From NCBI RefSeq assembly GCF_018334015.1, contig NZ_JAGXTI010000002.1: 64,000 nt of DNA; one strand, written 5' to 3'. The DNA comes from Silanimonas sp. (GTDB taxonomy: Bacteria > Pseudomonadota > Gammaproteobacteria > Xanthomonadales > Xanthomonadaceae). Below the pieces are notes generated by a model that was not told where the DNA came from, searched no databases, and saw nothing but the letters and a program-made list of their open reading frames with translations. Positions within the stretch are counted from its first letter, which is position 1, and each line of letters begins with the position of its first letter. Below are positions 4,503 through 39,274 of this stretch, piece after piece. A program made the translations under genes and the position numbers.

Positions 4503-6073
4503 CGGCCGTAGCGTCGCACGGTGTCGGCCAGCACCGGATCGCCAGGATCGAGCGCGCGACCGCGCTGCCAGGCGCGCAAGGCGGCGTCGCGGTCGCCAAG
4601 CAGCCAGAGCGCCTCGCCCCAGATCGCCGCCGTGGGTGCGCCCGGCTCCTCGATCCAGGCCCGGGCCAGCACCGCCTCGGCTTCGCGCGGTCGGCGCTCG
4701 GCCAGCAGCAAGGCGCCGAGGGCACGCAGGGCCGGCGCGTGGCGGGGGTCGCGGGCGAGGATGCCGCGCAGTTCGGCCTCGGCCTCGGCGCTGCGGCCGG
4801 CGGCTCGGGCCAGCCGGGCGCGGGCGACACGCAGGCCGGGATCGTCCTCCAGCACCGCGAGGCCGCGGCCGAGCACGGCGGCCGCGGCGGCGCGGTCGCC
4901 CCGGGCCTCGGCCTGGTCGGCTTCGGCCAGGAAGGCATCGCGGCGCAGGGCGCCGTCGGCCTGCTCGTCGGTCTGCAGGGCAATCAAGACCGCGCGGGCC
5001 TCCTCGCCACGCCCCTGCCGGCCGAGCACGGCACCGAGCCGCAGCCGCGCCCGCTGCCCGGCCTCGCCACGATCGACCCGCCGGTACCAGCGTTCGGCCG
5101 CCGGCCAGTCCTGCCGGCGCTCGGCGATCTCGCCGGCCAGCAGGGCAAGCGCCGGCTGTTGCGGGTCGGCCAGGGCGGCGGCCTCGACCTCCAGCCCCAG
5201 CTCGCCCAGCGCATCGAGTCGGCCGGCCCGCGTCAACCAGCCCGCGCGCAGGCTGAGGCTCTGGATGTCCTGCGGCCCATCGGCCAAGGCCTGTGCCGCG
5301 CCCTGCGGATCGCCCAGCACGGCCAGCGCCTCGGCGGCGATCCGCCGCTGCCCGGTGGCCAGACCATCGCGGGCCAGCACCCGCCGGATTTCGGCGCGTG
5401 CGGCATCGCGCTGGCCGGCCCGGGCCAGCCGCTCGGCGCGCAGCAGGCCGGCACGCGGGTCGTCGGGGAAACGCCGCACCAGGGCATCGATCCACTGCCC
5501 GGCCAGATGGGCATCGCCCAGGCCCTGCGCCGCGCCGGCCAGGGCCAGCCAGTCTTCGATCCGCGCCACCGCCGGCTCGGGCAGCAGCAGGGCACGCAGG
5601 GCGGCGCGGGCCATCACCCCGCGGTCGGGGTAGGGCCGGGTCAGGGCCGAAGCCACCCGGCGCGCGCCCTCGGGCTGCGCCAGCAAGCGCCGGGCGGTGA
5701 GCACGGCGGCCTCCAGCTCGCCCTGCACCAGATGGAAGCGCAGGGCCAGCGCATCGCGGACCGGTGATTCCGGCTCCAAGGCGGTCCAGCGCGCGAGCGC
5801 GGCCTCGGCCCGCCGATGGTCGTCGGCCTCGATGGCCGCGAGCAGGGCCAGGGCGGCCAGGCCACGATCATCGGCCGCCTGCGCCGCCGCCAACTGCCAA
5901 GCCGCCGCCACCTCGCGATCGCCGGTCTGGCGGGCGAATTCGGCGGCCAGCAGCGCGGTCAGGGCGTCCGGCGTCGCGCTGGCCGCGGCGGCAGGCGTCG
6001 ATCCGGCGCTGGGCGGGATGGCAAGGAGCAGGACCGCCAGCACGGGCGCCAGGCTCCGGGAACGGCGATTCAT
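4499..6073 (-). CDS. Tetratricopeptide-repeat protein with signal peptide
   Basis: MNRRSRSLAPVLAVLLLAIPPSAG signal sequence followed by an Ala/Leu/Arg-rich repetitive TPR-like sequence. TCAT overlap with the lolB start. Divergent from hemA, as in Pseudomonas and Xanthomonas. Confidence 0.7.
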   Translation of the reverse strand: MNRRSRSLAPVLAVLLLAIPPSAGSTPAAAASATPDALTALLAAEFARQTGDREVAAAWQLAAAQAADDRGLAALALLAAIEADDHRRAEAALARWTALEPESPVRDALALRFHLVQGELEAAVLTARRLLAQPEGARRVASALTRPYPDRGVMARAALRALLLPEPAVARIEDWLALAGAAQGLGDAHLAGQWIDALVRRFPDDPRAGLLRAERLARAGQRDAARAEIRRVLARDGLATGQRRIAAEALAVLGDPQGAAQALADGPQDIQSLSLRAGWLTRAGRLDALGELGLEVEAAALADPQQPALALLAGEIAERRQDWPAAERWYRRVDRGEAGQRARLRLGAVLGRQGRGEEARAVLIALQTDEQADGALRRDAFLAEADQAEARGDRAAAAAVLGRGLAVLEDDPGLRVARARLARAAGRSAEAEAELRGILARDPRHAPALRALGALLLAERRPREAEAVLARAWIEEPGAPTAAIWGEALWLLGDRDAALRAWQRGRALDPGDPVLADTVRRYGR

Positions 6074-30840: not shown

Positions 30841-31197
30841 TCAGCCTGCCGTCGTGCCGGCCCGCCGAGCAGCGATGAAGGAACGGACCATCAGCACCAG
30901 CAGAGCCACCGACAACGCCAGCATGCCGGCATTGACCCAGAAGGCCAGCGGGCTCATCTGCGCGGCGCGGATCGCCATCGCCGCCGCCGGTGCCAGCGCA
31001 CCGAGCAGGGCCACCACCGCCGCCACATGCATCAGGTGCTTGCGCGCGCCGTTGAAGGCGAGCGCGAGACCGGCCAGCAGGGCCAGCACGAGGCCCAGGT
31101 AAGCCGGCAGCAGCGCGGTACGGGTCGAGGAGATGCCGAAAGCACCGAGCCCGAGGGCGATCAGCAGGGCGGCGAAAATCAGCGTGGTCTTGGGCAT
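30841..31197 (-). CDS. Small integral membrane protein (four predicted TM helices), function unknown
   Basis: 118-aa hydrophobic ORF beginning MPKTTLIFAALLIALGLGAFG. It is the first gene beyond the left end of the R-M island. Confidence 0.6.
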   Translation of the reverse strand: MPKTTLIFAALLIALGLGAFGISSTRTALLPAYLGLVLALLAGLALAFNGARKHLMHVAAVVALLGALAPAAAMAIRAAQMSPLAFWVNAGMLALSVALLVLMVRSFIAARRAGTTAG

Positions 31198-31268
31198 CGG
31201 GATGGCGCTCGGAGAAGTTGGATCATGAGTGTGCCCGGTTTGTCGTCACCGGGGCGTCATCGGCGTCC

Positions 31269-31306
31269 TCACACCCCGATCGGGTTGGCCTTCTCGGCGT
31301 CGATGT
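31269..31306. repeat. Left copy of the 38-bp direct repeat (duplicate of the aceE 3' end)
   Basis: tcacaccccgatcgggttggccttctcggcgtcgatgt is identical to 36590-36627. The flanking bases differ (c versus t on one side, c versus t on the other). Confidence 0.95.
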
Positions 31307-34277
31307 CGCTGAAGTGCCGGAACTCCAGCGTCCCTTGCCAATTCTGATCCAGCAGAAGATCGCACTCGATCGTGATGCCATCGGCGTTCTCCAGCGACAG
31401 CGCACCGACTGGAGCGCGCGGGCCGTCGCTGAACATCCGGGTCAGTCGCTCCAGCAGCGCTTGTTTGTACGCCGTGTCCACCGAACCGCCCAAGTGGGCA
31501 CCTTTGGTCTCCAGCACGACCATGCGGCTGAGCCCGCCCTCGCCCACTTTGCCAAAGATAAAGTCCGGGTAGACCTTGTTGCGCTTCCAGCCCTGCAAGC
31601 CGTATTGCGCCTTCGCCACGTTGCGGTGCCACCACTGCAGCGCAGTACGACTGTCCAGATAGCCGGCGAACGCTGCTTCGAAATCATTGAAGTCGGGGAG
31701 CCGCAAGGCCGGTTCCAGCAGGCTTTTCTCAACCGGGCGCGCATCGGGCCGCTGCAGTGGCGCGGCCGCACCGGAAAGGTCGACCCTCTGCTCGACGGGC
31801 AGTTCGTAGTCGGCCGCATCGGCGCGCAGGCTGAAGGTGGCCCGGCCTGCGGCCACCATCGCATCGAAATGGGCCTGGGCGAGGCGGTCACGCTCCGCTT
31901 CAATGTCGACCCGCAACGCCTCGATCAGCGAAGCCGATGACCGGGCGATATCGGTCTCGGTAACGCCACTCTCCTTGAGGCGGTCCACCACGTCTGTCAC
32001 CCATCGCCAGACCCACCAGGCATTGGGTGCCAGATCGAGCAGCGCCCTGACGATCCGCGCCCTGTCCAACCCGGCCGTCGCGGTGGCTTCGGACGCGGCT
32101 TGGCTCACGCCGCCGCCATGAAGCACGCCAAGATCGACCAAGACGTGATCGCTCCCCGGCGTCTGCGAGGACGGCGCCCACCGGGCGGCCAATCGACGGG
32201 CATCGACGGCGGACCAGTCCAAGCCGGACAGCACGTCGCTCTCGTAGACCAACTCGCGGCGCATCGTGCCCTCGTTCCAGGTCACACGAGGCAGGAACAG
32301 CCGCAAACCCGCGAAGGCCGCGCGTCGCCGCAGGATCAAGGTATGGGCATCTTCTTTCGCTACATCACCGCCCTTCACCTGCGAGCTCAGATCACCCATA
32401 CCCTCGCCTTCCAATGCCTTGCGGATGCGATGGACCACCTCGCCCGTCTGTGCGTCATGGCAATAGACATAGCAACTGTCCAAGGCCTCGTGCCGTGTCT
32501 TCACCGTGCCGGGCTGGCGCAGGATGCGACCGACCAACTGGGTCATCGCCGCCGCATTGCGGCTGCTCGCCAGGGCGCAGAGCACGTAGGCGAACGGGCA
32601 ATCCCAACCCTCCTGCAGCGCCTGCTTGGTGATGATCACCCGCACCTCATTCTGCGGTGACAGCAAGTCGAGGTTCTCCGGCTGCTTGAGCTCGTCTTTC
32701 TCGGAGGTCTTGATGGCGATCTGCCGGGGCTTGAGCCCCAGCTGGAGCAGGTAGGCCTGCGCATCCTCGGCATGGATGAAGCCGGCATCGCGCTGGTCCT
32801 TGCCGGTACGTTCGACCTGCACCAGCAGAATCGGCCGGATGTAGCGGGCCGTCTCGCCCCGCAGCCGCTCGGCCTCGCGCTGAAGTTCGTCCAGCTTGGC
32901 CACCGACGCCGCGATGCAGCTCTGCCAGTCGGTCCAGCGTTTTGCCTCGACGTGGATCGGCAGTTTGATCATCTGTGCGTCGTCGAGATCGGTGCCACGC
33001 ACGTCGACCAGAATGTTCGAACCGTTGCCCTTGGCGGAGGCCACCCGAGGTGTCGCGGAAAGCTCCAGCAGGAACGACGGATTGAACCCGTCCAGCGTCG
33101 AAAGCGCGTTCTCGGTGTAGGCGTGGTGGCCCTCGTCCATCACGATCATCGGGCGCAGCAGTCGCATCACATTGCCCAATGAACTTTTGACGATGCTGCC
33201 CTTCTGGCGCCGGGCCGCTTCCTGCGATTGACCAACAGGCGCATAGACGTCGAGGTTCGGGACCTGCTGAAGCAGTGCCCAGTGTGCCTCGATGTCATCC
33301 TCGCGCGGGAGGAACCCGAGCACATTGCCGCGATCACGGAACAGGCGGAGCGTCTCCTTGCTCACCCGCGCCGCCGAGGCCAGCATCAACACCATCACGC
33401 ACAGGTGCGAGTCGGTATCGAGACGCGTCAATGGCGAGGTCTTCTCGAGGATCTTGACCCGTCCGGCGGCCGCGACGTTGAGGATCTGCCGATACGGATG
33501 ATCCCGGTCGGAAAGCGCCTTCAGCGTCTGCCGGTAGATCGCCTCGTTGGGCACCACCCACAGGGCCAACCCCGTCTGCCTTTTCAGGTAGAGCGAGAAG
33601 ACCCGCGCCACACTCGCCGCGGCCAGCAGGGTCTTGCCACCGCCGGTGGGAATCTTGAAGCAGAGGTTGGGGATGGCGTGGCCGGCACCGTCAAAGCGGC
33701 TCGAATGCGCGGCGCCCGCGTTGGTCCTGGGCAGCTTGTTCCCGCTCCTCAACTCTTCCCAGGCTTTGCGGGGGAAATCCCGGAGTTCGGCCGGAGTATC
33801 GAGATCGGCGACGCGGAGCACCTTCTCGGCGGCATCGGCCTTACCCTTCTGCCGCTGCAAGGCAGCGAGATAGTCATCCAGACGCTCCAGCACCGTCGAC
33901 TGGAAGGGCTTGAGAGAGATGCCACCCATGGCTTCGGCGCTGGCTGCGTAGCGCTTGCGCTGCCAGAACACGCATCGATCGCGTTCGATCCGCTGCCGGA
34001 AACCAGTCTCGATATCGTCCTGCCAGCGCGCCACATCGATCCGGTACAGGATGTCGAGATCGCGAAGTGCGTTCGACAACTGCGCCCACTCCCCGGGCGT
34101 CGCGGACGGGCAGTCGAGCACCAGATCGATGTCGGAATCGTTCCGTTCATCGCCGCGCGCTCGCGAGCCGTAGATCCACGCGACCTCCACGAACGGTGCC
34201 GCATCAAGGAGGGCGATGATCTTCGCCGCACTGGCAGGAGCGATGCCGAAACCCGGTTTGGGCGACACCGTCGACAT
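31269..34277 (-). CDS. res: Type III restriction enzyme Res subunit with an N-terminal MNT nucleotidyltransferase domain fused in-frame
   Basis: Residues about 1-105 are an NTase fold (GSRARGDERNDSDIDLVLD, i.e. GSx10DxD). The rest is an SF2 helicase (PTGGGKT, VMDEGHH, LELSATP, QLVGRILR) followed by a C-terminal PD-(D/E)xK nuclease (YPDF...VVLETKG). There is no stop codon between the domains. A possible internal start (MGGISLKPFQ) lies at 33929. Confidence 0.85.
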   Translation of the reverse strand: MSTVSPKPGFGIAPASAAKIIALLDAAPFVEVAWIYGSRARGDERNDSDIDLVLDCPSATPGEWAQLSNALRDLDILYRIDVARWQDDIETGFRQRIERDRCVFWQRKRYAASAEAMGGISLKPFQSTVLERLDDYLAALQRQKGKADAAEKVLRVADLDTPAELRDFPRKAWEELRSGNKLPRTNAGAAHSSRFDGAGHAIPNLCFKIPTGGGKTLLAAASVARVFSLYLKRQTGLALWVVPNEAIYRQTLKALSDRDHPYRQILNVAAAGRVKILEKTSPLTRLDTDSHLCVMVLMLASAARVSKETLRLFRDRGNVLGFLPREDDIEAHWALLQQVPNLDVYAPVGQSQEAARRQKGSIVKSSLGNVMRLLRPMIVMDEGHHAYTENALSTLDGFNPSFLLELSATPRVASAKGNGSNILVDVRGTDLDDAQMIKLPIHVEAKRWTDWQSCIAASVAKLDELQREAERLRGETARYIRPILLVQVERTGKDQRDAGFIHAEDAQAYLLQLGLKPRQIAIKTSEKDELKQPENLDLLSPQNEVRVIITKQALQEGWDCPFAYVLCALASSRNAAAMTQLVGRILRQPGTVKTRHEALDSCYVYCHDAQTGEVVHRIRKALEGEGMGDLSSQVKGGDVAKEDAHTLILRRRAAFAGLRLFLPRVTWNEGTMRRELVYESDVLSGLDWSAVDARRLAARWAPSSQTPGSDHVLVDLGVLHGGGVSQAASEATATAGLDRARIVRALLDLAPNAWWVWRWVTDVVDRLKESGVTETDIARSSASLIEALRVDIEAERDRLAQAHFDAMVAAGRATFSLRADAADYELPVEQRVDLSGAAAPLQRPDARPVEKSLLEPALRLPDFNDFEAAFAGYLDSRTALQWWHRNVAKAQYGLQGWKRNKVYPDFIFGKVGEGGLSRMVVLETKGAHLGGSVDTAYKQALLERLTRMFSDGPRAPVGALSLENADGITIECDLLLDQNWQGTLEFRHFSDIDAEKANPIGV

Positions 34278-34678
34278 CAGTGCTTCGCCAGCACCTGGGC
34301 CAGCGCATCGAAGGCGGCCACCGCCTCGGCACGAATAAAAGCCGCCACCTCGATGGCTTTCGCGGCGTCGTAGGTGTGGCTGGTTTCGTCGCGATAGTCC
34401 TTGATGCGCTCCCACGCCTGAGCATCGGCAATGTACCGGGCAACGAATGCCGCCTGCAGCACCGGGCGCACCATCTTCGGCGGATTCTCCCCCTGCAGCC
34501 GCAGCAGGTCGTACATCGCCTTCCACGCCAGCTCGAAGGTGAACTCGAAGCGCTGGATCAAGGCATCGCGGACAATGTCGGTCTCGTCGACGGCAAGGGC
34601 CTCATGCAGGCGCTGCAGCGCCTTGACGTACTGCGCGCGATGCAGATCGAAGCGCTCGCGTTGCATGTTCATGCTCAC
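34277..34678 (-). CDS. HEPN-domain protein, HI0074 family (nucleotidyltransferase substrate-binding protein; putative RNase toxin)
   Basis: IQRFEFTFELAWKAMYDLL is typical of HI0074-like proteins. The Rx4H motif RDETSH (residues 96-101) is followed by Tyr103. GTGA overlap with the mod stop, and a 1-nt TGATG overlap with the MNT-res start. Confidence 0.85.
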   Translation of the reverse strand: MSMNMQRERFDLHRAQYVKALQRLHEALAVDETDIVRDALIQRFEFTFELAWKAMYDLLRLQGENPPKMVRPVLQAAFVARYIADAQAWERIKDYRDETSHTYDAAKAIEVAAFIRAEAVAAFDALAQVLAKH

Positions 34679-36588
34679 GCCTCCCGGTACAGGGCGAAGG
34701 GCAGCGGCGCGTAGTCGATGGCATAGTCGCCCAACTGCCGGTTGCTCAGGTACTTGGCTGGCGCGAACACCAGATGGCGCTTGCGCTCGCCACGCGTGGC
34801 GTCGTGCTCCAGACCCCAGTCATGGAAGGACTTCGCCAACGAAAGCGTCAGCGCCGCTTCGGGGCTGGTCAGGAAGGCCAGCACAGGCTCATACACCAGC
34901 CAGACATGGGCATCGCGGGCCTCGCCGAGGTACCACTTCGGCACCTTCTTCGGCGCGGGCGGCAAGGCACCTCCGGTGGCGGTGTGGAACAGCCACTCGC
35001 CCAGCGCCGACCGGGCCGGCAGCGACTCGCCAGACAGCAGTTTGTCGAGATCCAGCGGCTCACCCAGGGTGCAGTAGGTGAAGCCGCCACCCAAACCGTC
35101 CACGCGCTCGGAGATCTTCTTCTCGCCTTCGACGCGCAGCACGCCCTCATCCAGCTTCACACTGATCCTGTCGAAGCGTTTCGTCTTCGCCGTTCCCTGA
35201 TCGACGAGATCGCCCTCGACGAAGCCCTCGCGCGCCTTGATCGCTTCGATCCTGGCGAGCCATTCATCGGCCTTCTTGAACTGCGTGAAGGTGATCTTCT
35301 GCTCCAGCAGGGTCTCCTTCTGCGTGCCCAACCAGGCGTAGCCCTGGATGACGCGACGCACGCGCTCGGCGGTGAGGCGGTCGGCGTAGTCCTCGCCTTC
35401 GACGAGGATGAAACGACGCGAACCGCCGTCGGCGGCGTTGGCCTTGAGCACCGCATGAGCGGTGGTGCCCGAGCCGGCGAAGCTGTCGAGGACAAGGGCG
35501 TCTTCATTCGAAACGATTTCTATCAGTCGCTGAATCAAGGCTACTGGCTTGGGGAAATCGAAAGAATTTGATCCAAGAATCTCAGTGACCGTCCTTCGTG
35601 CCAGATCCATGTTTAGCTCGGCATCAAGCCAAACTGTTTTTGGCTTGGTTGTTGCCTCTTCTCCATCCTCCGCAATCAAGTAGTCCTTACGGAAAACTCG
35701 CCAAGTTCCGTCGGAGGTTTTGCGACCGACCAAAAAAAGAAAATCTTTCCTGATCTTTGGGACGCTCCAAGTCCAGCAAGTAGGCTCACCCCGAGAGTCA
35801 AGCGGCAACGCTTCAGCGACGTGAAAGGCATCCCTCTCGACCGAGACGCTGCCTGTGTCTGGCCGAACATACAGAGGGAAGTAGAGATTTGGACGCGTAC
35901 CCGGATTGAATGCGGAGTTTCGATTCCGGAGCTCAATCAAACGATAGCGACCGCGCCCATCCTGCTCTCGATACTCCGCGACCATTTTCTCAGTCTTCGC
36001 TGCGCCATTAAATGCAGCATGCTGAGCACTCTTCGCGAAAACGAGCACATACTCATGCGTTTTCGCGAAGTGTTTATCTAAGTGACGACCTTTTGGATTA
36101 AGCCTTGCAACAATTCGGCCTAGGTTGTTGTCAGATCCGAAAATCTCGTCGAGCATCATCTCAAGTCGGTGCGACTCGTGATCGTCAATCGTTACGAAGA
36201 TCACACCAGCCTCGGAGAGCAGCTCTCGCAGCAACACCAGCCGCGGCCACATCATGCACAGCCACTTGTCGTGGCGAAGCATGTCCTCGGCGTCCACCGG
36301 GTTGGTGGACAGCCACTCCTTCATGATCGGGCTGTTGACGCCGTCGCTGTAGCACCAGCCCTCGTTGCCGGTGTTGTAGGGCGGGTCGATGAAGACCAGA
36401 TCGACCTTGCCGGCATAGCGCGGCAGCAGGCTCTTCAGGGCGTGCAGGTTGTCGCCGTGGATCACCAGGTTGCCGCCAAGATCGGGGGCACCCACGCTTT
36501 TTTCCGCATGCGTAACCAGCGGCCGGAACGGTACCGTCAGATGATGGTTGTAGACGTATTCCTTGCCCTTGAAGACGATTTCCGGCAT
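34675..36588 (-). CDS. mod: Type III R-M DNA methyltransferase Mod subunit (beta-class N6-adenine methyltransferase)
   Basis: VFIDPPYNTGN (motif IV) lies N-terminal to DSFAGSGTTAHAV (motif I), with a variable central region between them. ATG at 36586-36588, 1 nt after the aceE stop. Confidence 0.88.
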   Translation of the reverse strand: MPEIVFKGKEYVYNHHLTVPFRPLVTHAEKSVGAPDLGGNLVIHGDNLHALKSLLPRYAGKVDLVFIDPPYNTGNEGWCYSDGVNSPIMKEWLSTNPVDAEDMLRHDKWLCMMWPRLVLLRELLSEAGVIFVTIDDHESHRLEMMLDEIFGSDNNLGRIVARLNPKGRHLDKHFAKTHEYVLVFAKSAQHAAFNGAAKTEKMVAEYREQDGRGRYRLIELRNRNSAFNPGTRPNLYFPLYVRPDTGSVSVERDAFHVAEALPLDSRGEPTCWTWSVPKIRKDFLFLVGRKTSDGTWRVFRKDYLIAEDGEEATTKPKTVWLDAELNMDLARRTVTEILGSNSFDFPKPVALIQRLIEIVSNEDALVLDSFAGSGTTAHAVLKANAADGGSRRFILVEGEDYADRLTAERVRRVIQGYAWLGTQKETLLEQKITFTQFKKADEWLARIEAIKAREGFVEGDLVDQGTAKTKRFDRISVKLDEGVLRVEGEKKISERVDGLGGGFTYCTLGEPLDLDKLLSGESLPARSALGEWLFHTATGGALPPAPKKVPKWYLGEARDAHVWLVYEPVLAFLTSPEAALTLSLAKSFHDWGLEHDATRGERKRHLVFAPAKYLSNRQLGDYAIDYAPLPFALYREA

Positions 36589-36589
36589 T

Positions 36590-36627
36590 TCACACCCCGA
36601 TCGGGTTGGCCTTCTCGGCGTCGATGT
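36590..36627. repeat. Right copy of the 38-bp direct repeat (the authentic aceE 3' end)
   Basis: Identical to 31269-31306. Encodes the aceE stop codon plus the last 11 codons (IDAEKANPIGV). Confidence 0.95.
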
Positions 36628-39274
36628 TGAACACCTTGATGGCGCGGGCCACATCCTTCGCGTTCATCCTGCCCTCGGCCGCGAGCGCGGCGACCGCGGC
36701 GTGCGCGATGTAGTAGCGGTCGACCTCGAAGTGGCGGCGCAGGTTCGCACGGGTGTCCGAGCGGCCGAAGCCATCGGTGCCGAGCACGGTGTACTTCATC
36801 GGCACGAAGGCGCGGATCTGGTCGGCAAACTGGCGCACGTAGTCGGTCGCGGCGATCGCCGGCCCTTGGCGGCCTTCCAGCAGCTCGGTCACATAGGCCT
36901 TGCGCGGCGTCTTCGCTTCCGGGTGCAGGCGGTTCCAACGCTCGGCGTCGAAGCCGTCGCGGCGCAGCTCGGTGAAGCTCGGGCAGCTCCAGATATCGGA
37001 GGACACGCCGAACTCCTTGTCGAGCAGCTCGGCGGCGAAGATCGCCTCGCGCAGGATCGTGCCCGAGCCCAACAGCTGCACACGCAGCTCGCCCTTCTTC
37101 GGCTTGCCGGCGTCCTTGAGCAGGTACATGCCCTTGATGATCCCCTCGGCTGCACCCTCCGGCATCTCCGGGTGGGCGTAGTTCTCGTTCATCAGGGTCA
37201 GGTAGTAATACTCGTCCACCTGCTCGGTCATCATCCGCTGCATGCCGTGCTGCAGGATCACCGCGACCTCGTAGGCGAAGGTCGGATCAAAGGGGCGGCA
37301 GTTCGGGATGTTGCCGGCCAGCAGGTGCGAGTGGCCGTCCTCGTGCTGGAGCCCTTCACCGTTGAGCGTGGTGCGGCCGGCGGTGGCACCCAGCAGGAAG
37401 CCGCGGGCGCGCATGTCGGCGGCCTGCCAGGCCGAATCACCGATGCGCTGGAAGCCGAACATCGAATAGAAGATGTAGAACGGCAGCATCGGCACGTTGT
37501 TCGTGCTGTAGCTGGTGGCTGCCGCCATCCAGCTGGCGAAGCTGCCGGCTTCGTTGATGCCTTCCTGCAGCACCTGGCCGGCCGCGTCCTCGCGGTAGAA
37601 CATCAGCTGGTCGGCATCGACCGGCTTGTATTTCTGGCCGTGCGGCGAATAGATGCCGATCTGCCGGAACAGACCCTCCATGCCGAAGGTGCGCGCCTCG
37701 TCGCAGATGATCGGCACCGTGCGCGGGCCGATCGCCTTGTCGCGCAGGATCACGTTCAGTGCCTGCACGAAGGCCATCGTGGTGCTGATCTCGCGCTCGC
37801 CGCTGCTCTTCAGCAGGCGGTCGAAGACCTCGAGCGCCGGCGTCGGCAGCGATTCGCTGGCCTTGATGCGGCGCTGCGGTAATGGGCCGCCGAGTGCTTC
37901 GCGGCGGGCTTTCAGGTACTGCACTTCCGGCGCGTCGGGACCGGGGTGGTAGAACGGCACCTCGGGCAGTTGCTCGTCGCTCACCGGGATGTTGAAGCGG
38001 TCGCGGAACGCCTTCACCGCCGCGTCGTCGAGCTTCTTCTGCTGGTGGGTGATGTTGATCGACTCGCCGGCCTTGCCCATGCCGTAGCCTTTCACCGTCT
38101 TGGCGAGGATCACGGTGGGCTGGCCCTTGTGCGCGCTGGCGGCGGCATAGGCGGCGTACACCTTGTGCGGGTCGTGGCCGCCGCGGTTGAGGCGCCAGAT
38201 GTCCTCGTCGGACAGCGAGGCGACCATCTGCTTGGTCTCCTCGTACTTGCCGAAGAAATGCTCGCGCGTGTACGCGCCGCCGAAGGCCTTGCAGTTCTGG
38301 TACTCGCCGTCGACGGTTTCCATCATCAGCTTCTTCAGCACGCCGTTGCTGTCCTTGGCCAGCAGCGGGTCCCAGTAACTGCCCCAGACCACCTTCAGCG
38401 CATTCCAGCCGGCGCCACGGAACTGGCCTTCCAGCTCCTGAATGATCTTGCCGTTGCCGCGCACCGGGCCATCCAACCGCTGCAGGTTGCAGTTGATGAC
38501 GAAGATGAGGTTGTCGAGGCCCTCGCGGCCGGCCAGCGAGATGGCACCGAGGCTCTCGGGCTCGTCGCATTCGCCGTCGCCGAGGAAGCACCAGACCTTG
38601 CGGTCGCTGACCGGCATCAGGCCACGGGCTTCGAGGTACTTCCAGAAGCGCGCTTGGTAGATCGCCGCGATGGGCCCCAGACCCATCGACACCGTGGGCG
38701 TCTGCCAGAAGTCCGGCATCAGCCACGGGTGGGGGTAGCTGGAAATGCCTTTGCCGTCGACCTCCATGCGGAAGTGGTCGAGCTGCTGCTCGGTCAACCG
38801 GCCTTCCAGGAAGGCGCGGGCGTAGACGCCCGGCGAGCTGTGCCCCTGGATGAACAGCAGGTCGCCGGGATGCTGGTCGCTGGGCGCGCGCCAGAAGTGG
38901 TTGAAGCCGACGTCGTACAGCGTGGCCGCCGACGCGAAGCTGGCGATATGGCCGCCGAGCTCTCCGGGCTTGCGGTTGGCGCGCACCACCATCGCCAGCG
39001 CGTTCCAGCGGATCAGCGAACGCAGCCGCCACTCCATCTGCGCATCGCCCGGGCTCTTGGCTTCGAGGTGCGTCGGGATGGTGTTGACGTATTCGGTGGT
39101 CGGCGCGAAGGGCAGGTGGGCGCCGGCGCGGCGGGTGAGTTCGACCATCCGCTCGAGCAGGTGGTGGGCACGCTCCGGACCGTCGGCATCGATGACCGCT
39201 TTCAGCGACTCCAGCCACTCCCGGGTCTCGGTGGGGTCGAGGTCGTTCGCCAGGATCTCCTGCAGCCAGTTCAT
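36590..39274 (-). CDS. aceE: Pyruvate dehydrogenase E1 component (homodimeric type)
   Basis: 894 aa starting MNWLQEILANDLDPTETREWLESL. Contains the ThDP motif GDGECDEPES. Full-length similarity to AceE by eye. Confidence 0.95.
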   Translation of the reverse strand: MNWLQEILANDLDPTETREWLESLKAVIDADGPERAHHLLERMVELTRRAGAHLPFAPTTEYVNTIPTHLEAKSPGDAQMEWRLRSLIRWNALAMVVRANRKPGELGGHIASFASAATLYDVGFNHFWRAPSDQHPGDLLFIQGHSSPGVYARAFLEGRLTEQQLDHFRMEVDGKGISSYPHPWLMPDFWQTPTVSMGLGPIAAIYQARFWKYLEARGLMPVSDRKVWCFLGDGECDEPESLGAISLAGREGLDNLIFVINCNLQRLDGPVRGNGKIIQELEGQFRGAGWNALKVVWGSYWDPLLAKDSNGVLKKLMMETVDGEYQNCKAFGGAYTREHFFGKYEETKQMVASLSDEDIWRLNRGGHDPHKVYAAYAAASAHKGQPTVILAKTVKGYGMGKAGESINITHQQKKLDDAAVKAFRDRFNIPVSDEQLPEVPFYHPGPDAPEVQYLKARREALGGPLPQRRIKASESLPTPALEVFDRLLKSSGEREISTTMAFVQALNVILRDKAIGPRTVPIICDEARTFGMEGLFRQIGIYSPHGQKYKPVDADQLMFYREDAAGQVLQEGINEAGSFASWMAAATSYSTNNVPMLPFYIFYSMFGFQRIGDSAWQAADMRARGFLLGATAGRTTLNGEGLQHEDGHSHLLAGNIPNCRPFDPTFAYEVAVILQHGMQRMMTEQVDEYYYLTLMNENYAHPEMPEGAAEGIIKGMYLLKDAGKPKKGELRVQLLGSGTILREAIFAAELLDKEFGVSSDIWSCPSFTELRRDGFDAERWNRLHPEAKTPRKAYVTELLEGRQGPAIAATDYVRQFADQIRAFVPMKYTVLGTDGFGRSDTRANLRRHFEVDRYYIAHAAVAALAAEGRMNAKDVARAIKVFNIDAEKANPIGV

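Follow-up and report, generated by a model that had tools for sequence, protein, structure and literature searches.

A Type III restriction-modification island bounded by a duplicated aceE tail and probably inserted without a recombinase

In an uncultured Lysobacteraceae bacterium, a predicted Type III restriction-modification (R-M) gene block follows the stop codon of aceE and lies between two copies of a long direct repeat, which raises the question of how it entered the chromosome. How R-M systems move without a recombinase has been an open question since 2000, the year in which R-M gene insertion with long target duplication was reportedly described by Nobusato et al. (Gene 259:99). The window analysed here is the whole stretch of 64,000 nucleotides, and the features of the locus in it are as follows.

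30841..31197, minus strand: smp, small membrane protein of 118 aa, no family; conserved right-hand neighbour (gene call, profile search)
31198..31268, minus strand: native spacer between aceE and smp, 71 nt (aligned in the window, L089 and L093)
31269..31306, minus strand: left repeat copy, the duplicated aceE tail; last 12 codons and TGA of res, in frame; downstream
31307..34277, minus strand: MNT::res gene body, codons 1-990; Polbeta PF18765 (residues 19-107) and ResIII PF04851
34277..34672, minus strand: HEPN-type gene (NTase_sub_bind), 131 aa; PF08780 6e-26, TIGR01987 2e-24
34675..36588, minus strand: mod, predicted Type III N6-adenine DNA methyltransferase, 637 aa; PF01555 8e-34, PADLOC MTase_III 2e-174
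36589, minus strand: one nucleotide, A on the coding strand, separating the aceE TGA from the mod ATG; left edge of the inserted block
31307-36589, minus strand: inserted block (mod, HEPN, MNT::res), 5,283 bp between aceE and the native downstream spacer
36590..36627, minus strand: right repeat copy, last 11 codons plus 2 nt and TGA of aceE; upstream in gene orientation
36590..39274, minus strand: aceE, pyruvate dehydrogenase E1, 894 aa, the intact target gene; TIGR00759, Pfam PDH_E1_M and transketolase domains

A search of the whole window placed exact matches of the 38-mer TCACACCCCGATCGGGTTGGCCTTCTCGGCGTCGATGT at 31269-31306 and 36590-36627, in direct orientation and exactly twice, as an earlier note on this DNA had stated; no third site was present in the window at up to 3 mismatches on both strands. 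The repeat period is 5,321 nt from start to start, with 5,283 bp separating the two copies, and identity stops at 38 nt with no extension on either side. Translation bore out the description of the right copy as the aceE stop and last 11 codons, to which a further 2 nt belong. The left copy had been placed 5.3 kb downstream and 71 nt before smp, and this position is correct (the smp ATG, at 31197, is 71 nt beyond the end of the copy), but the copy is not intergenic, being the in-frame 3' end of res, which the note had missed. The C-terminus of Res reads ...RHFSD-IDAEKANPIGV* and that of AceE ...VFN-IDAEKANPIGV*. At the other end of the block, the aceE/mod junction reads ...GGGGTGTGA-A-ATGCCGGAA, and the nucleotide corresponding to the single A is G in the relative L091. 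Because the mod ATG starts 1 nt past the aceE TGA, the block is without a leader, and it also lacks its own stop codon. Neither junction showed convincing microhomology; one candidate (TTCAGC versus TTCAAC) was rejected, as its register mismatches the observed joint.

Profile searches agreed with the earlier note that only mod, HEPN and MNT-res genes lie between the copies, and the antisense ORFs of the island gave zero Pfam families above threshold. The target gene aceE scored 1465 bits against TIGR00759 (cut-off 860). The Mod translation contains FIDPPYNT (catalytic DPPY) and DSFAGSGTT (AdoMet-binding FxGxG), and the variable target-recognition region of mod is its low-GC centre, at ~35400-36200 in the GC profile; this centre is 49-58% identical to the window in L091 and L092. 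The HEPN protein carries RDETSH, an Rx4H motif, and the stop of its gene overlaps the res ATG by 1 nt. With the left repeat copy included, the whole MNT(Polbeta)::ResIII ORF runs from 34277 to 31269, and its body, lacking its own stop codon, joins a minimal nucleotidyltransferase at the N-terminus to a Type III Res helicase-nuclease. Res contains TGGGKT and DEGHH (helicase) and YPDF...LETKG (PD-(D/E)xK nuclease), PADLOC REase_III (3e-194) spans its residues 121-981, and an MNT motif of the GSx(n)DxD type, GSRARGDERNDSDIDL, is present in its N-terminus. By these motifs and profiles, and by the position of res downstream of mod, the two genes are predicted to form a Type III R-M system. The Rx4H and MNT motifs, together with matches to PF08780, PF18765 and NF047752, suggest a HEPN/MNT (type VII toxin-antitoxin-like) pair in which the MNT is fused to Res, not free.

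No recombinase or transposase was found in the island or in the 10 kb flanking it on each side, where all genes are housekeeping genes; no tRNA lies within 28 kb, and there are no inverted repeats at the block ends. The earlier claim that recombinase, tRNA and terminal inverted repeat are all lacking was upheld for the island and these flanks. A duplication of 38 bp, versus less than 15 bp for DNA transposons and IS elements, is out of keeping with that class, as is the lack of terminal inverted repeats and transposase. For an integrative element, a tyrosine or serine recombinase gene is missing from the island, and within the 64-kb window the att-type core is duplicated, yet no non-coding arm DNA lies beside it. 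A promoter and terminator scan found no consensus and was uninformative on transcription from aceE.

Sites without the island were located via exact-protein look-ups of smp homologues. Four conspecific metagenome contigs (L093, L095, L096 and L097) have one tail copy and neither mod nor res: the aceE TGA runs directly into GGACGCCAATGACGCCCCGGTGACGG..., a spacer of ~71-72 nt, and then smp, and the same GGACGCCAATGACGCCCCGGTGACGG... is the window sequence after the left repeat copy. An empty site of exactly this kind, joining the aceE stop to the sequence downstream of the left copy, had been named beforehand as a check, and the single-copy sites support the reading of the earlier note, insertion with long target duplication. 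The empty-site contigs are 98.8% identical to the window in aceE nucleotides and 92% in the downstream flank. Two filled strains, L184 and L089, share the chromosomal background of L093 (flanks 97.4-97.9% and 99.3% identical to L093), and filled and empty alleles coexist within one species. The filled arrangement is old and is also common to diverged relatives (Res 79-99% identical); in relatives the repeat is 39 nt long, with copies differing at 1-2 positions. Across 2.3 Mb of fetched loci the 38-mer, at up to 5 mismatches, occurred only at aceE ends and res ends. Two observations had been listed that would refute an insertion, a dispersed repeat unrelated to aceE and R-M-less relatives carrying both copies; the former was absent from these loci, and the R-M-less relatives have one copy. 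Scanning a genome collection with the aceE C-terminus found mod/res after aceE in 0 of 80 loci (closest genera 80-85% AceE identity), and it gave no usable empty site because smp directly followed aceE in none; in Arenimonas an M28 peptidase takes this place. Plasmid and viral-contig searches yielded no close counterpart and no vehicle, the viral contigs holding only distant relatives (at most 46% identical). The context of P0164 was set aside as an unrelated locus.

The inserted fragment starts 1 nt ahead of the mod ATG and stops two codons beyond the conserved ...RYF end of Res. Thousands of Res homologues end in ...RYFx plus a variable tail, the native end being ...RYF(S/A/G) followed by 0-20 variable residues, and the aceE tail was found on Res only in the aceE-linked variants P0001-P0004. 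The idea that Res C-terminal tails are generally copies of the 3' end of the upstream neighbour was rejected on 37 complete loci, among which flanking repeats occurred only in L129 and L138 (REP-like palindromic repeats) and L117 (paralogous segments). The res gene of L184 is 100% identical to the window over 2.9 kb and falls to ~91% exactly at the tail boundary, and L184 has a tail, spacer and smp of the type seen in L093; a recombination breakpoint coincides exactly with the junction of res and tail. L089 matches the window at 100% over a stretch that begins 430 nt inside aceE and takes in 1.2 kb of mod, and its res 3' end is 62-76% identical. The repeat copies covary, the window having AAG/AAC/ATC in both copies, L091 having GTC in both, and the L093 lineage having AAA/AAT both in the aceE tail of the empty site and in the L184 and L089 res tails. 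Between lineages the tail is conserved at 33-37 of 38 positions, with the adjacent res at 64-82% and the spacer at 40-63%. The left repeat copy behaves as chromosomal flank. Two Res C-terminal alleles (69% amino-acid identity) both have the tail at the same junction codon. Purifying selection on the tail peptide within Res was considered, since the differences are mostly synonymous, but they mirror the aceE-tail polymorphisms, and the L184 tail has a non-synonymous A-to-V change; copying from aceE accounts for the pattern with no need for selection in Res.

We consider it probable that the block is foreign DNA, introduced by one illegitimate insertion of the Kobayashi type, independent of a recombinase and with long target duplication. 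This event would have taken place in the ancestor of a Lysobacteraceae subclade, and not recently in this genome. At insertion the last 38-39 nt of aceE would have been duplicated on both sides of the block, leaving aceE intact, and res would have taken its last 12 codons and stop codon from the duplicated tail. The placement of mod 1 nt behind the aceE stop would make read-through transcription from aceE and translational coupling likely. Later, the block has been exchanged between conspecific chromosomes, and probably lost from some, via ordinary homologous recombination, with aceE, the repeat and the smp side supplying the homology. As a result of such exchange the downstream copy is effectively the aceE tail of the resident chromosome and remains nearly identical to it. 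Recombination between the repeat copies would delete the island precisely, restoring the wild-type aceE locus.

The ends of the insert coincide almost exactly with the mod start codon and the last res codons, a precision that a random illegitimate event leaves unexplained. The presence of the same-junction tail on two very different Res alleles requires later allele replacement or repeated conversion. Homologous units elsewhere are generally without flanking long repeats, and this counts against a single insertion with target duplication.

The same aceE-smp gap holds the same three genes in more distant Lysobacteraceae, L181, L185 and P0005, with Res 72-78% identical to the window, roughly in step with flank divergence (73-75% at the nucleotide level); the contexts of P0005 and P0008 rest on gene tables. 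These islands have their own leader (45-90 nt with an AGGAGC ribosome-binding site in L181 and L185) and end in a Res tail of their own, with no duplicated tail that could be recognised. The res stop codon meets the beginning of the homologous spacer, GG(AC)GC(C)(G/A)ATGACGCC, in each of the three layouts, and all of these lie within ~12 nt of one stop codon, that of aceE. In L181, L185 and P0005 the Res tails are G/S/P-rich, and those of L181 and L185 are partly alike by eye, so that they look native; their derivation from a decayed aceE tail was not significant for L181 (36 of 300 shuffles reach the score) or L185 (146 of 300).

Since related islands with other junctions occupy the same gap, an island may predate the repeat. 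An older resident island could have lost its leader and gained an ectopic aceE tail at the res 3' end by template switch or gene conversion, in which case the repeat would not derive from insertion and the empty sites would be precise deletions through the repeat. The shared gap, the parallel divergence of Res and flanks and the constant abutment of res stop and spacer all fit such remodelling in place, and the covariation of the copies within lineages shows the tail to be subject to conversion or homologous recombination. However, at least two independent base-precise events would be needed against one, the tails of L181 and L185 are not significantly similar to the aceE tail, and clean empty sites are found in the same species as filled ones. 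In addition L098, at a distance from the window similar to that of L181 and L185, is empty. We regard remodelling as rather unlikely.

A targeted process is hinted at by the three layouts within ~12 nt of the aceE stop, the res stop abutting the flank, and the junction codon common to divergent Res alleles. The block might then be a distinct recombinase-less, 'ORF-precise' defence cassette without promoter or stop, which docks where a highly expressed housekeeping gene has its stop codon and takes its transcription and last codons from that gene, with the duplicated tail as the active joint through which it is gained, precisely lost and passed between strains; we find this decidedly doubtful. 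It is very improbable that the 38-mer is an att core at the aceE 3' end and the island non-autonomous and, like cis-mobilisable elements, moved by a recombinase encoded elsewhere. A long direct repeat over a gene 3' end that restores the gene is the classical integrase signature, the foreign DNA of L181 likewise starts immediately after the aceE TGA, and related islands in three layouts use the same few chromosomal nucleotides. Yet no integrase is encoded in the island or within 10 kb of it, and there is no room for att arms, as only 1 nt separates the core from the mod ATG and the res frame continues into the core. The second core copy is missing in L181 and L185, homologous units elsewhere have no common flanking core, and the searches for a vehicle returned no close plasmid match and only the distant viral-contig relatives.

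A chance repeat or an assembly artefact, namely a chimeric contig created where two sequences share a k-mer, is refuted: short-read k-mer assemblies do break at the repeat, and the left copy is exactly where the Logan contig L007 begins, but none of 100 shuffled sequences gave a single 38-mer match, six independent assemblies from different pipelines (L001-L006) span both copies with identical structure and so argue against an artefact, and diverged relatives share the architecture with slightly differing copies.

Insertion with long target duplication, the reading we prefer, has been defined for R-M systems by the presence of R and M homologues inside an insert of less than 20 kb, a duplication of more than 30 bp, the lack of mobility genes and a single-copy empty site (Furuta, Abe & Kobayashi 2010, NAR 38:2428; PMC2853133). 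Here mod and res lie inside an insert of 5,283 bp, the duplication is 38/38 in the window, and the empty sites L093, L095, L096 and L097 align with both repeats; no mobility or phage genes were found nearby and the repeat is not multi-copy, in the window and 2.3 Mb of loci. The locus shares with that class the absence of a mobility gene, a direct repeat above 30 bp and a single-copy empty site in a related genome. In the published class such repeats often span a stop codon, gene fusions can result, and Type III examples are reported (PMC2853133); the target gene survives there because the repeat spans the stop codon, and the same applies here. The present case differs from the published insertions in its host, an uncultured Lysobacteraceae bacterium, in the HEPN/MNT pair within the unit, and in an insert whose limits match, to within a codon, the operon's first start codon and its last sense codons. 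It differs further in an R gene that uses a duplicated central-metabolism tail as its own C-terminus and stop, and in population data that reveal the repeat as a recombination boundary with covarying copies.

The natural case is unusually clean, with filled and empty alleles in one species, junctions at base level, a coding repeat and a repeat that forms a recombination boundary. It indicates that an incoming gene can obtain a C-terminus and stop codon from a target duplication, and that expression of a defence system may be physically tied to a central-metabolism gene. The value of the locus is that of a well-documented, testable example.

Like the classical Type III systems EcoP1I and EcoP15I, the island has the mod-res order, DPPY and FxGxG in Mod, and a superfamily-2 helicase with C-terminal PD...ExK motifs in Res, features known here from sequence; unlike them, it has a HEPN gene between mod and res, an MNT fused to the Res N-terminus and no promoter region of its own. 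As in integrase islands at gene or tRNA 3' ends, the repeat includes the target 3' end, the gene stays intact and the island varies among strains, but integrase, att arms and tRNA are lacking and the repeat codes for the end of the island's last gene. Homology-facilitated illegitimate recombination, which de Vries and Wackernagel are said to have described in 2002 in natural transformation, usually involves deletion of recipient DNA and 3-8 bp of microhomology at the joint. That process would leave a donor-type anchor copy upstream and a recipient-type copy downstream, as in L089, although convincing junction microhomology was not found here. The locus reveals no new mechanism and is a clear further example of a known, poorly understood entry route.

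The direct 38-mer occurs in exactly two copies in the window, at 31269-31306 and 36590-36627, with the copies 5,321 nt apart and no extension of the repeat beyond 38 nt at either end. No further match was found in the window at up to 3 mismatches, or in 100 shuffles. Over the window and 2.3 Mb of additional loci, the 38-mer was seen only at aceE ends and res ends, and not as a dispersed repeat independent of aceE. Re-mapping of the 31269-36627 region agreed with the coordinates and gene content of the earlier note. A point that the note does not make is that the left copy lies outside intergenic DNA: the res open reading frame runs through it in frame.

Features of the aceE-smp region
39274-36590, minus strand, aceE (TIGR00759, 1465 bits, well over cut-off)
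36588-34675, minus strand, mod, Type III methyltransferase gene
34672-34277, minus strand, HEPN/NTase_sub_bind gene
34277-31269, minus strand, MNT(Polbeta)::res, 1002 aa, N-terminus a minimal nucleotidyltransferase and the remainder Type III Res
between the res end and smp, minus strand, spacer of 71 nt
31197-30841, minus strand, smp, uncharacterised 118-aa membrane protein

A single nucleotide separates the aceE TGA from the mod ATG (…GGGGTGTGA-A-ATGCCGGAA…), followed by 2 nt between mod and the HEPN gene and a 1-nt overlap between the latter and res. The GC content of the mod centre is 52-55%, compared with 65-72% in the flanks. Res ends in …RHFSD-IDAEKANPIGV-stop and AceE in …VFN-IDAEKANPIGV-stop. 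Homologues of Res typically close on a conserved …W.G.LE.RYF(S/A/G), to which 0-20 residues of unrelated sequence are added, and the PADLOC REase_III profile stops at Res residue 981. Among the matches listed, the aceE tail was present only on the four closest homologues, P0001-P0004 (79-99% identical). Because of the one nucleotide before the mod ATG, the native Res ends and the restriction of the tail to these four proteins, the inserted block starts just before the first start codon and ends just past the last conserved codons of the last gene. The block has neither a leader nor a stop codon of its own.

A scan of AceE C-termini, using one genome per species, assigned the organism to Lysobacteraceae (closest genera 80-85% AceE identity); it found R-M genes nowhere after aceE, but smp was nowhere in that position either, and therefore no clean empty site was obtained. 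Among the collected genomes, AceE was matched best by L009 (JAIBEO010000045.1), at 89% across the 299 C-terminal residues. This contig bears the label 'Rhizobium sp.' MAG but has an aceE of Lysobacteraceae type, and is therefore probably mis-binned. Empty sites were obtained using smp homologues and their contigs. Four of these, L093, L095, L096 and L097, match the window at 98.8% in aceE and at 92% in the flank downstream. Immediately after aceE…TGA they continue with GGACGCCAATGACGCCCCGGTGACGG…, reaching smp 72 nt on; mod and res are absent. A more distant relative, L098, is also empty. Since these sites run from the aceE TGA through the spacer to smp, the filled allele equals the empty site plus an A, mod to res without its stop, and a second copy of the aceE tail. 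The junction of the aceE stop with the native spacer is that expected by the earlier note, and the R-M-free relatives have one tail copy each rather than both.

The identical arrangement, with 100% identical proteins, is present in six independent assemblies (ENA, NCBI GCA_018334115.1 and four JGI metagenomes), and an assembly artefact was rejected on this agreement. Logan contigs, which are built from k-mers, are interrupted at the repeat: L007 (1-110) begins exactly at the first base of the left 38-mer, and L008 (1-102) begins a few bases inside it. These breaks are consistent with those expected of a k-mer graph at a repeat, and have no bearing on excision.

As the earlier note had stated, the island has no recombinase, tRNA or terminal inverted repeat; no integrase was found within 10 kb of it on either side, and the sole tRNA of the window is at 2857. 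Antisense ORFs within the island gave no family match above threshold. Over 10 kb in each direction lie genes for malic enzyme, a glycosyltransferase, an rRNA-methyltransferase-like protein, pseudouridine synthase, PfkB, MreBCD, PBP2, RodA and a lytic transglycosylase. A search for a close copy of the R-M unit on plasmids found none, and viral contigs held only distant relatives, 46% or less identical.

The window architecture is shared by diverged relatives (Res identity 99% in L184, 88% in L089 and L090, 87% in L092 and 79% in L091), and in these the tail copies differ (36/38 in L089; 1 difference in 39 in L091). The flanks of the filled L184 and L089 are 97.4-97.9% and 99.3% identical to those of the empty L093, and because of this common chromosomal background the island is a presence/absence polymorphism inside one species. 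In L184, res is 100% identical to the window over 2.9 kb, as far as the tail, and the sequence becomes L093-type from the first tail bases on (tail 35/38 and spacer 62% to the window; downstream flank 91% to the window versus ~98% to L093). Because L184 switches sequence type exactly there, the res/tail junction (31306/31307) behaves as the real edge of the island, and the repeat copy downstream of it as part of the chromosome.

L089 has a mosaic structure. Its identity to the window is 100% over a stretch that starts 430 nt inside aceE and covers 1.2 kb of mod, returns to 100% in the 5' half of res, and is just 62-76% in the 3' 1.1 kb of res. An IS1595-family transposase gene (DDE_Tnp_IS1595) interrupts mod in this locus (1790-2740; SRR34065956), with HEPN and res intact. 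The C-terminal third of Res (31307-32400; P0003, P0004) has two strongly diverged alleles, with 69% amino-acid identity, whereas over the first 620 residues the window and P0003 agree at 99%; this is a sharp intragenic recombination mosaic. The mod centre, ~35400-36200, has been replaced in L091 and L092 (49-58% nucleotide identity versus 84-93% either side). This is probably the target-recognition domain swapped between alleles, from which it would follow that strains likely differ in specificity.

The two tail copies covary. Both copies have AAG/AAC/ATC in the window and a derived GTC (Ile to Val) in L091, and in the L093 lineage the empty strains have AAA/AAT in their aceE tail, as do the filled L184 and L089 in their res tail; the aceE-side copy of L089 arrived with window-type DNA. 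Across lineages the res tail is 33-37/38 identical, compared with 64-82% for the 300 nt of res before it and 40-63% for the spacer after it, an excess with binomial P of 1e-5 to 6e-3 in most pairs with differing res 3' ends. The pattern is read most simply as repeated re-setting of the downstream copy to the resident aceE tail, possibly by gene conversion or, when DNA is transferred, by a crossover within or beside the tail. Re-setting from aceE would account for the mostly synonymous tail differences, and selection on the Res tail is not needed; the L184 tail has a non-synonymous A-to-V change.

The aceE-smp gap also holds related islands that have their own leader and Res tail.

Leader-type islands
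L181 (Res 74-75% identical): aceE-TGA, then ORF284, ~760 nt and mod-HEPN-res, then spacer-smp
L185 (Res 72-73%): aceE-TGA, 91-nt spacer and mod-HEPN-res, then spacer-smp

An smp-sized gene follows P0005 (Res 78-79%) too. By Res identity, the window type, P0005 with P0006, and P0007 form groups apart from the rest. The mod leaders of L181 and L185 are homologous and contain the ribosome-binding site AGGAGC, and in these islands as well the res stop adjoins the start of the homologous spacer. The G/S/P-rich Res tails of L181, L185 and P0005 had no significant similarity to the aceE tail. In L181 (1012-2700; Lysobacteraceae MAG, GCA_046315915.1) foreign DNA starts directly after the aceE TGA, with a 284-aa ORF without known family preceding the homologous mod-HEPN-res; a weak partial aceE-tail match, AACACCGACGCCGACGAAG, whose score was reached in 0/300 shuffles, is located ~215 nt ahead of mod. 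The 91-nt spacer of L185 (440-532) contains a terminator-like hairpin (GGGCGGC…GCCGCCC) and then TTTCTTTT. The 7-nt TAGGCGC at both junctions of this island (440-532 and 5800-5815), which takes in the res stop codon, could be a short target duplication, although a 7-mer match is at chance level here (E ~3).

Of two readings of the shared gap, we rank first the one in which R-M units would have long occupied this site and the window type would have entered an empty allele separately, as a truncated insertion. Remodelling of the window type in situ from a leader-bearing ancestor would take two or more base-precise events and is therefore ranked second. Judged from the 64-kb window, an integrase supplied in trans is disfavoured, since no room is left for att arms. 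In the preferred separate insertion, the founding step would be a single illegitimate event in which 38-39 nt of aceE were duplicated. This model leaves unexplained the exact match of the fragment ends to ORF ends and, likewise, the same junction codon in two Res C-terminal alleles only 69% identical. Transcripts of aceE probably run on into mod, with probable translational coupling at TGAAATG; a scan of the sequence showed neither a promoter nor a terminator consensus. The island would spread among conspecifics via homologous recombination, and recombination between the copies could allow precise loss, restoring an intact aceE locus. If a circular form exists, its joint would read ...TTCAGCG + 38-mer + AATGCCGG.

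Type III R-M units of the HEPN plus MNT::Res form are very common (6,051 Res matches at E≤1e-10, with the MNT (Polbeta) fusion in most of the best 120), and no description of this form was found in the literature searched. The HEPN gene lies between mod and res (window 31269-34678) whenever Res has an N-terminal MNT domain, as in most of loci L101-L155 (57-68% Res identity). The more distant L156-L180 (47-49%), in which Res starts at about residue 115-120, lack it. Flanking repeats were present in just 3/37 complete homologous units from metagenomes, and were rejected as a general property of the family. These are a 41-nt repeat, 95% identical, in L129 (3536-3576 and 8983-9023), a 21-nt repeat in L138 (3554-3574 and 9012-9032), and paralogous segments in L117. 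The direct repeats of L129 and L138, contigs taken to be betaproteobacterial, are REP-like and palindromic (…ATAGCTGC.AGCGCTT…), and the downstream copy begins directly after the res stop; this may be a further case of long target duplication, or no more than a dispersed repeat present twice.

The island lacks the transposase and terminal inverted repeats of transposons and the recombinase gene of integrase-type elements; it does have a duplicated core, with no non-coding arm DNA beside it. Insertion with long target duplication, as defined by Furuta, Abe & Kobayashi (2010; PMC2853133), involves an insert of <20 kb containing both R and M, a duplication of >30 bp, no mobility genes, and an empty site whose only copy aligns with the repeats. 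It was reported for Types I-IV, Type III included; a start or stop codon often lies within the repeats, so that the target gene survives, and one fusion gene arose in this way. Every one of the defining properties is found at aceE, the empty site included, and on sequence comparison the island can be regarded, in line with the earlier note, as a real and well-supported case of R-M insertion with long target duplication.
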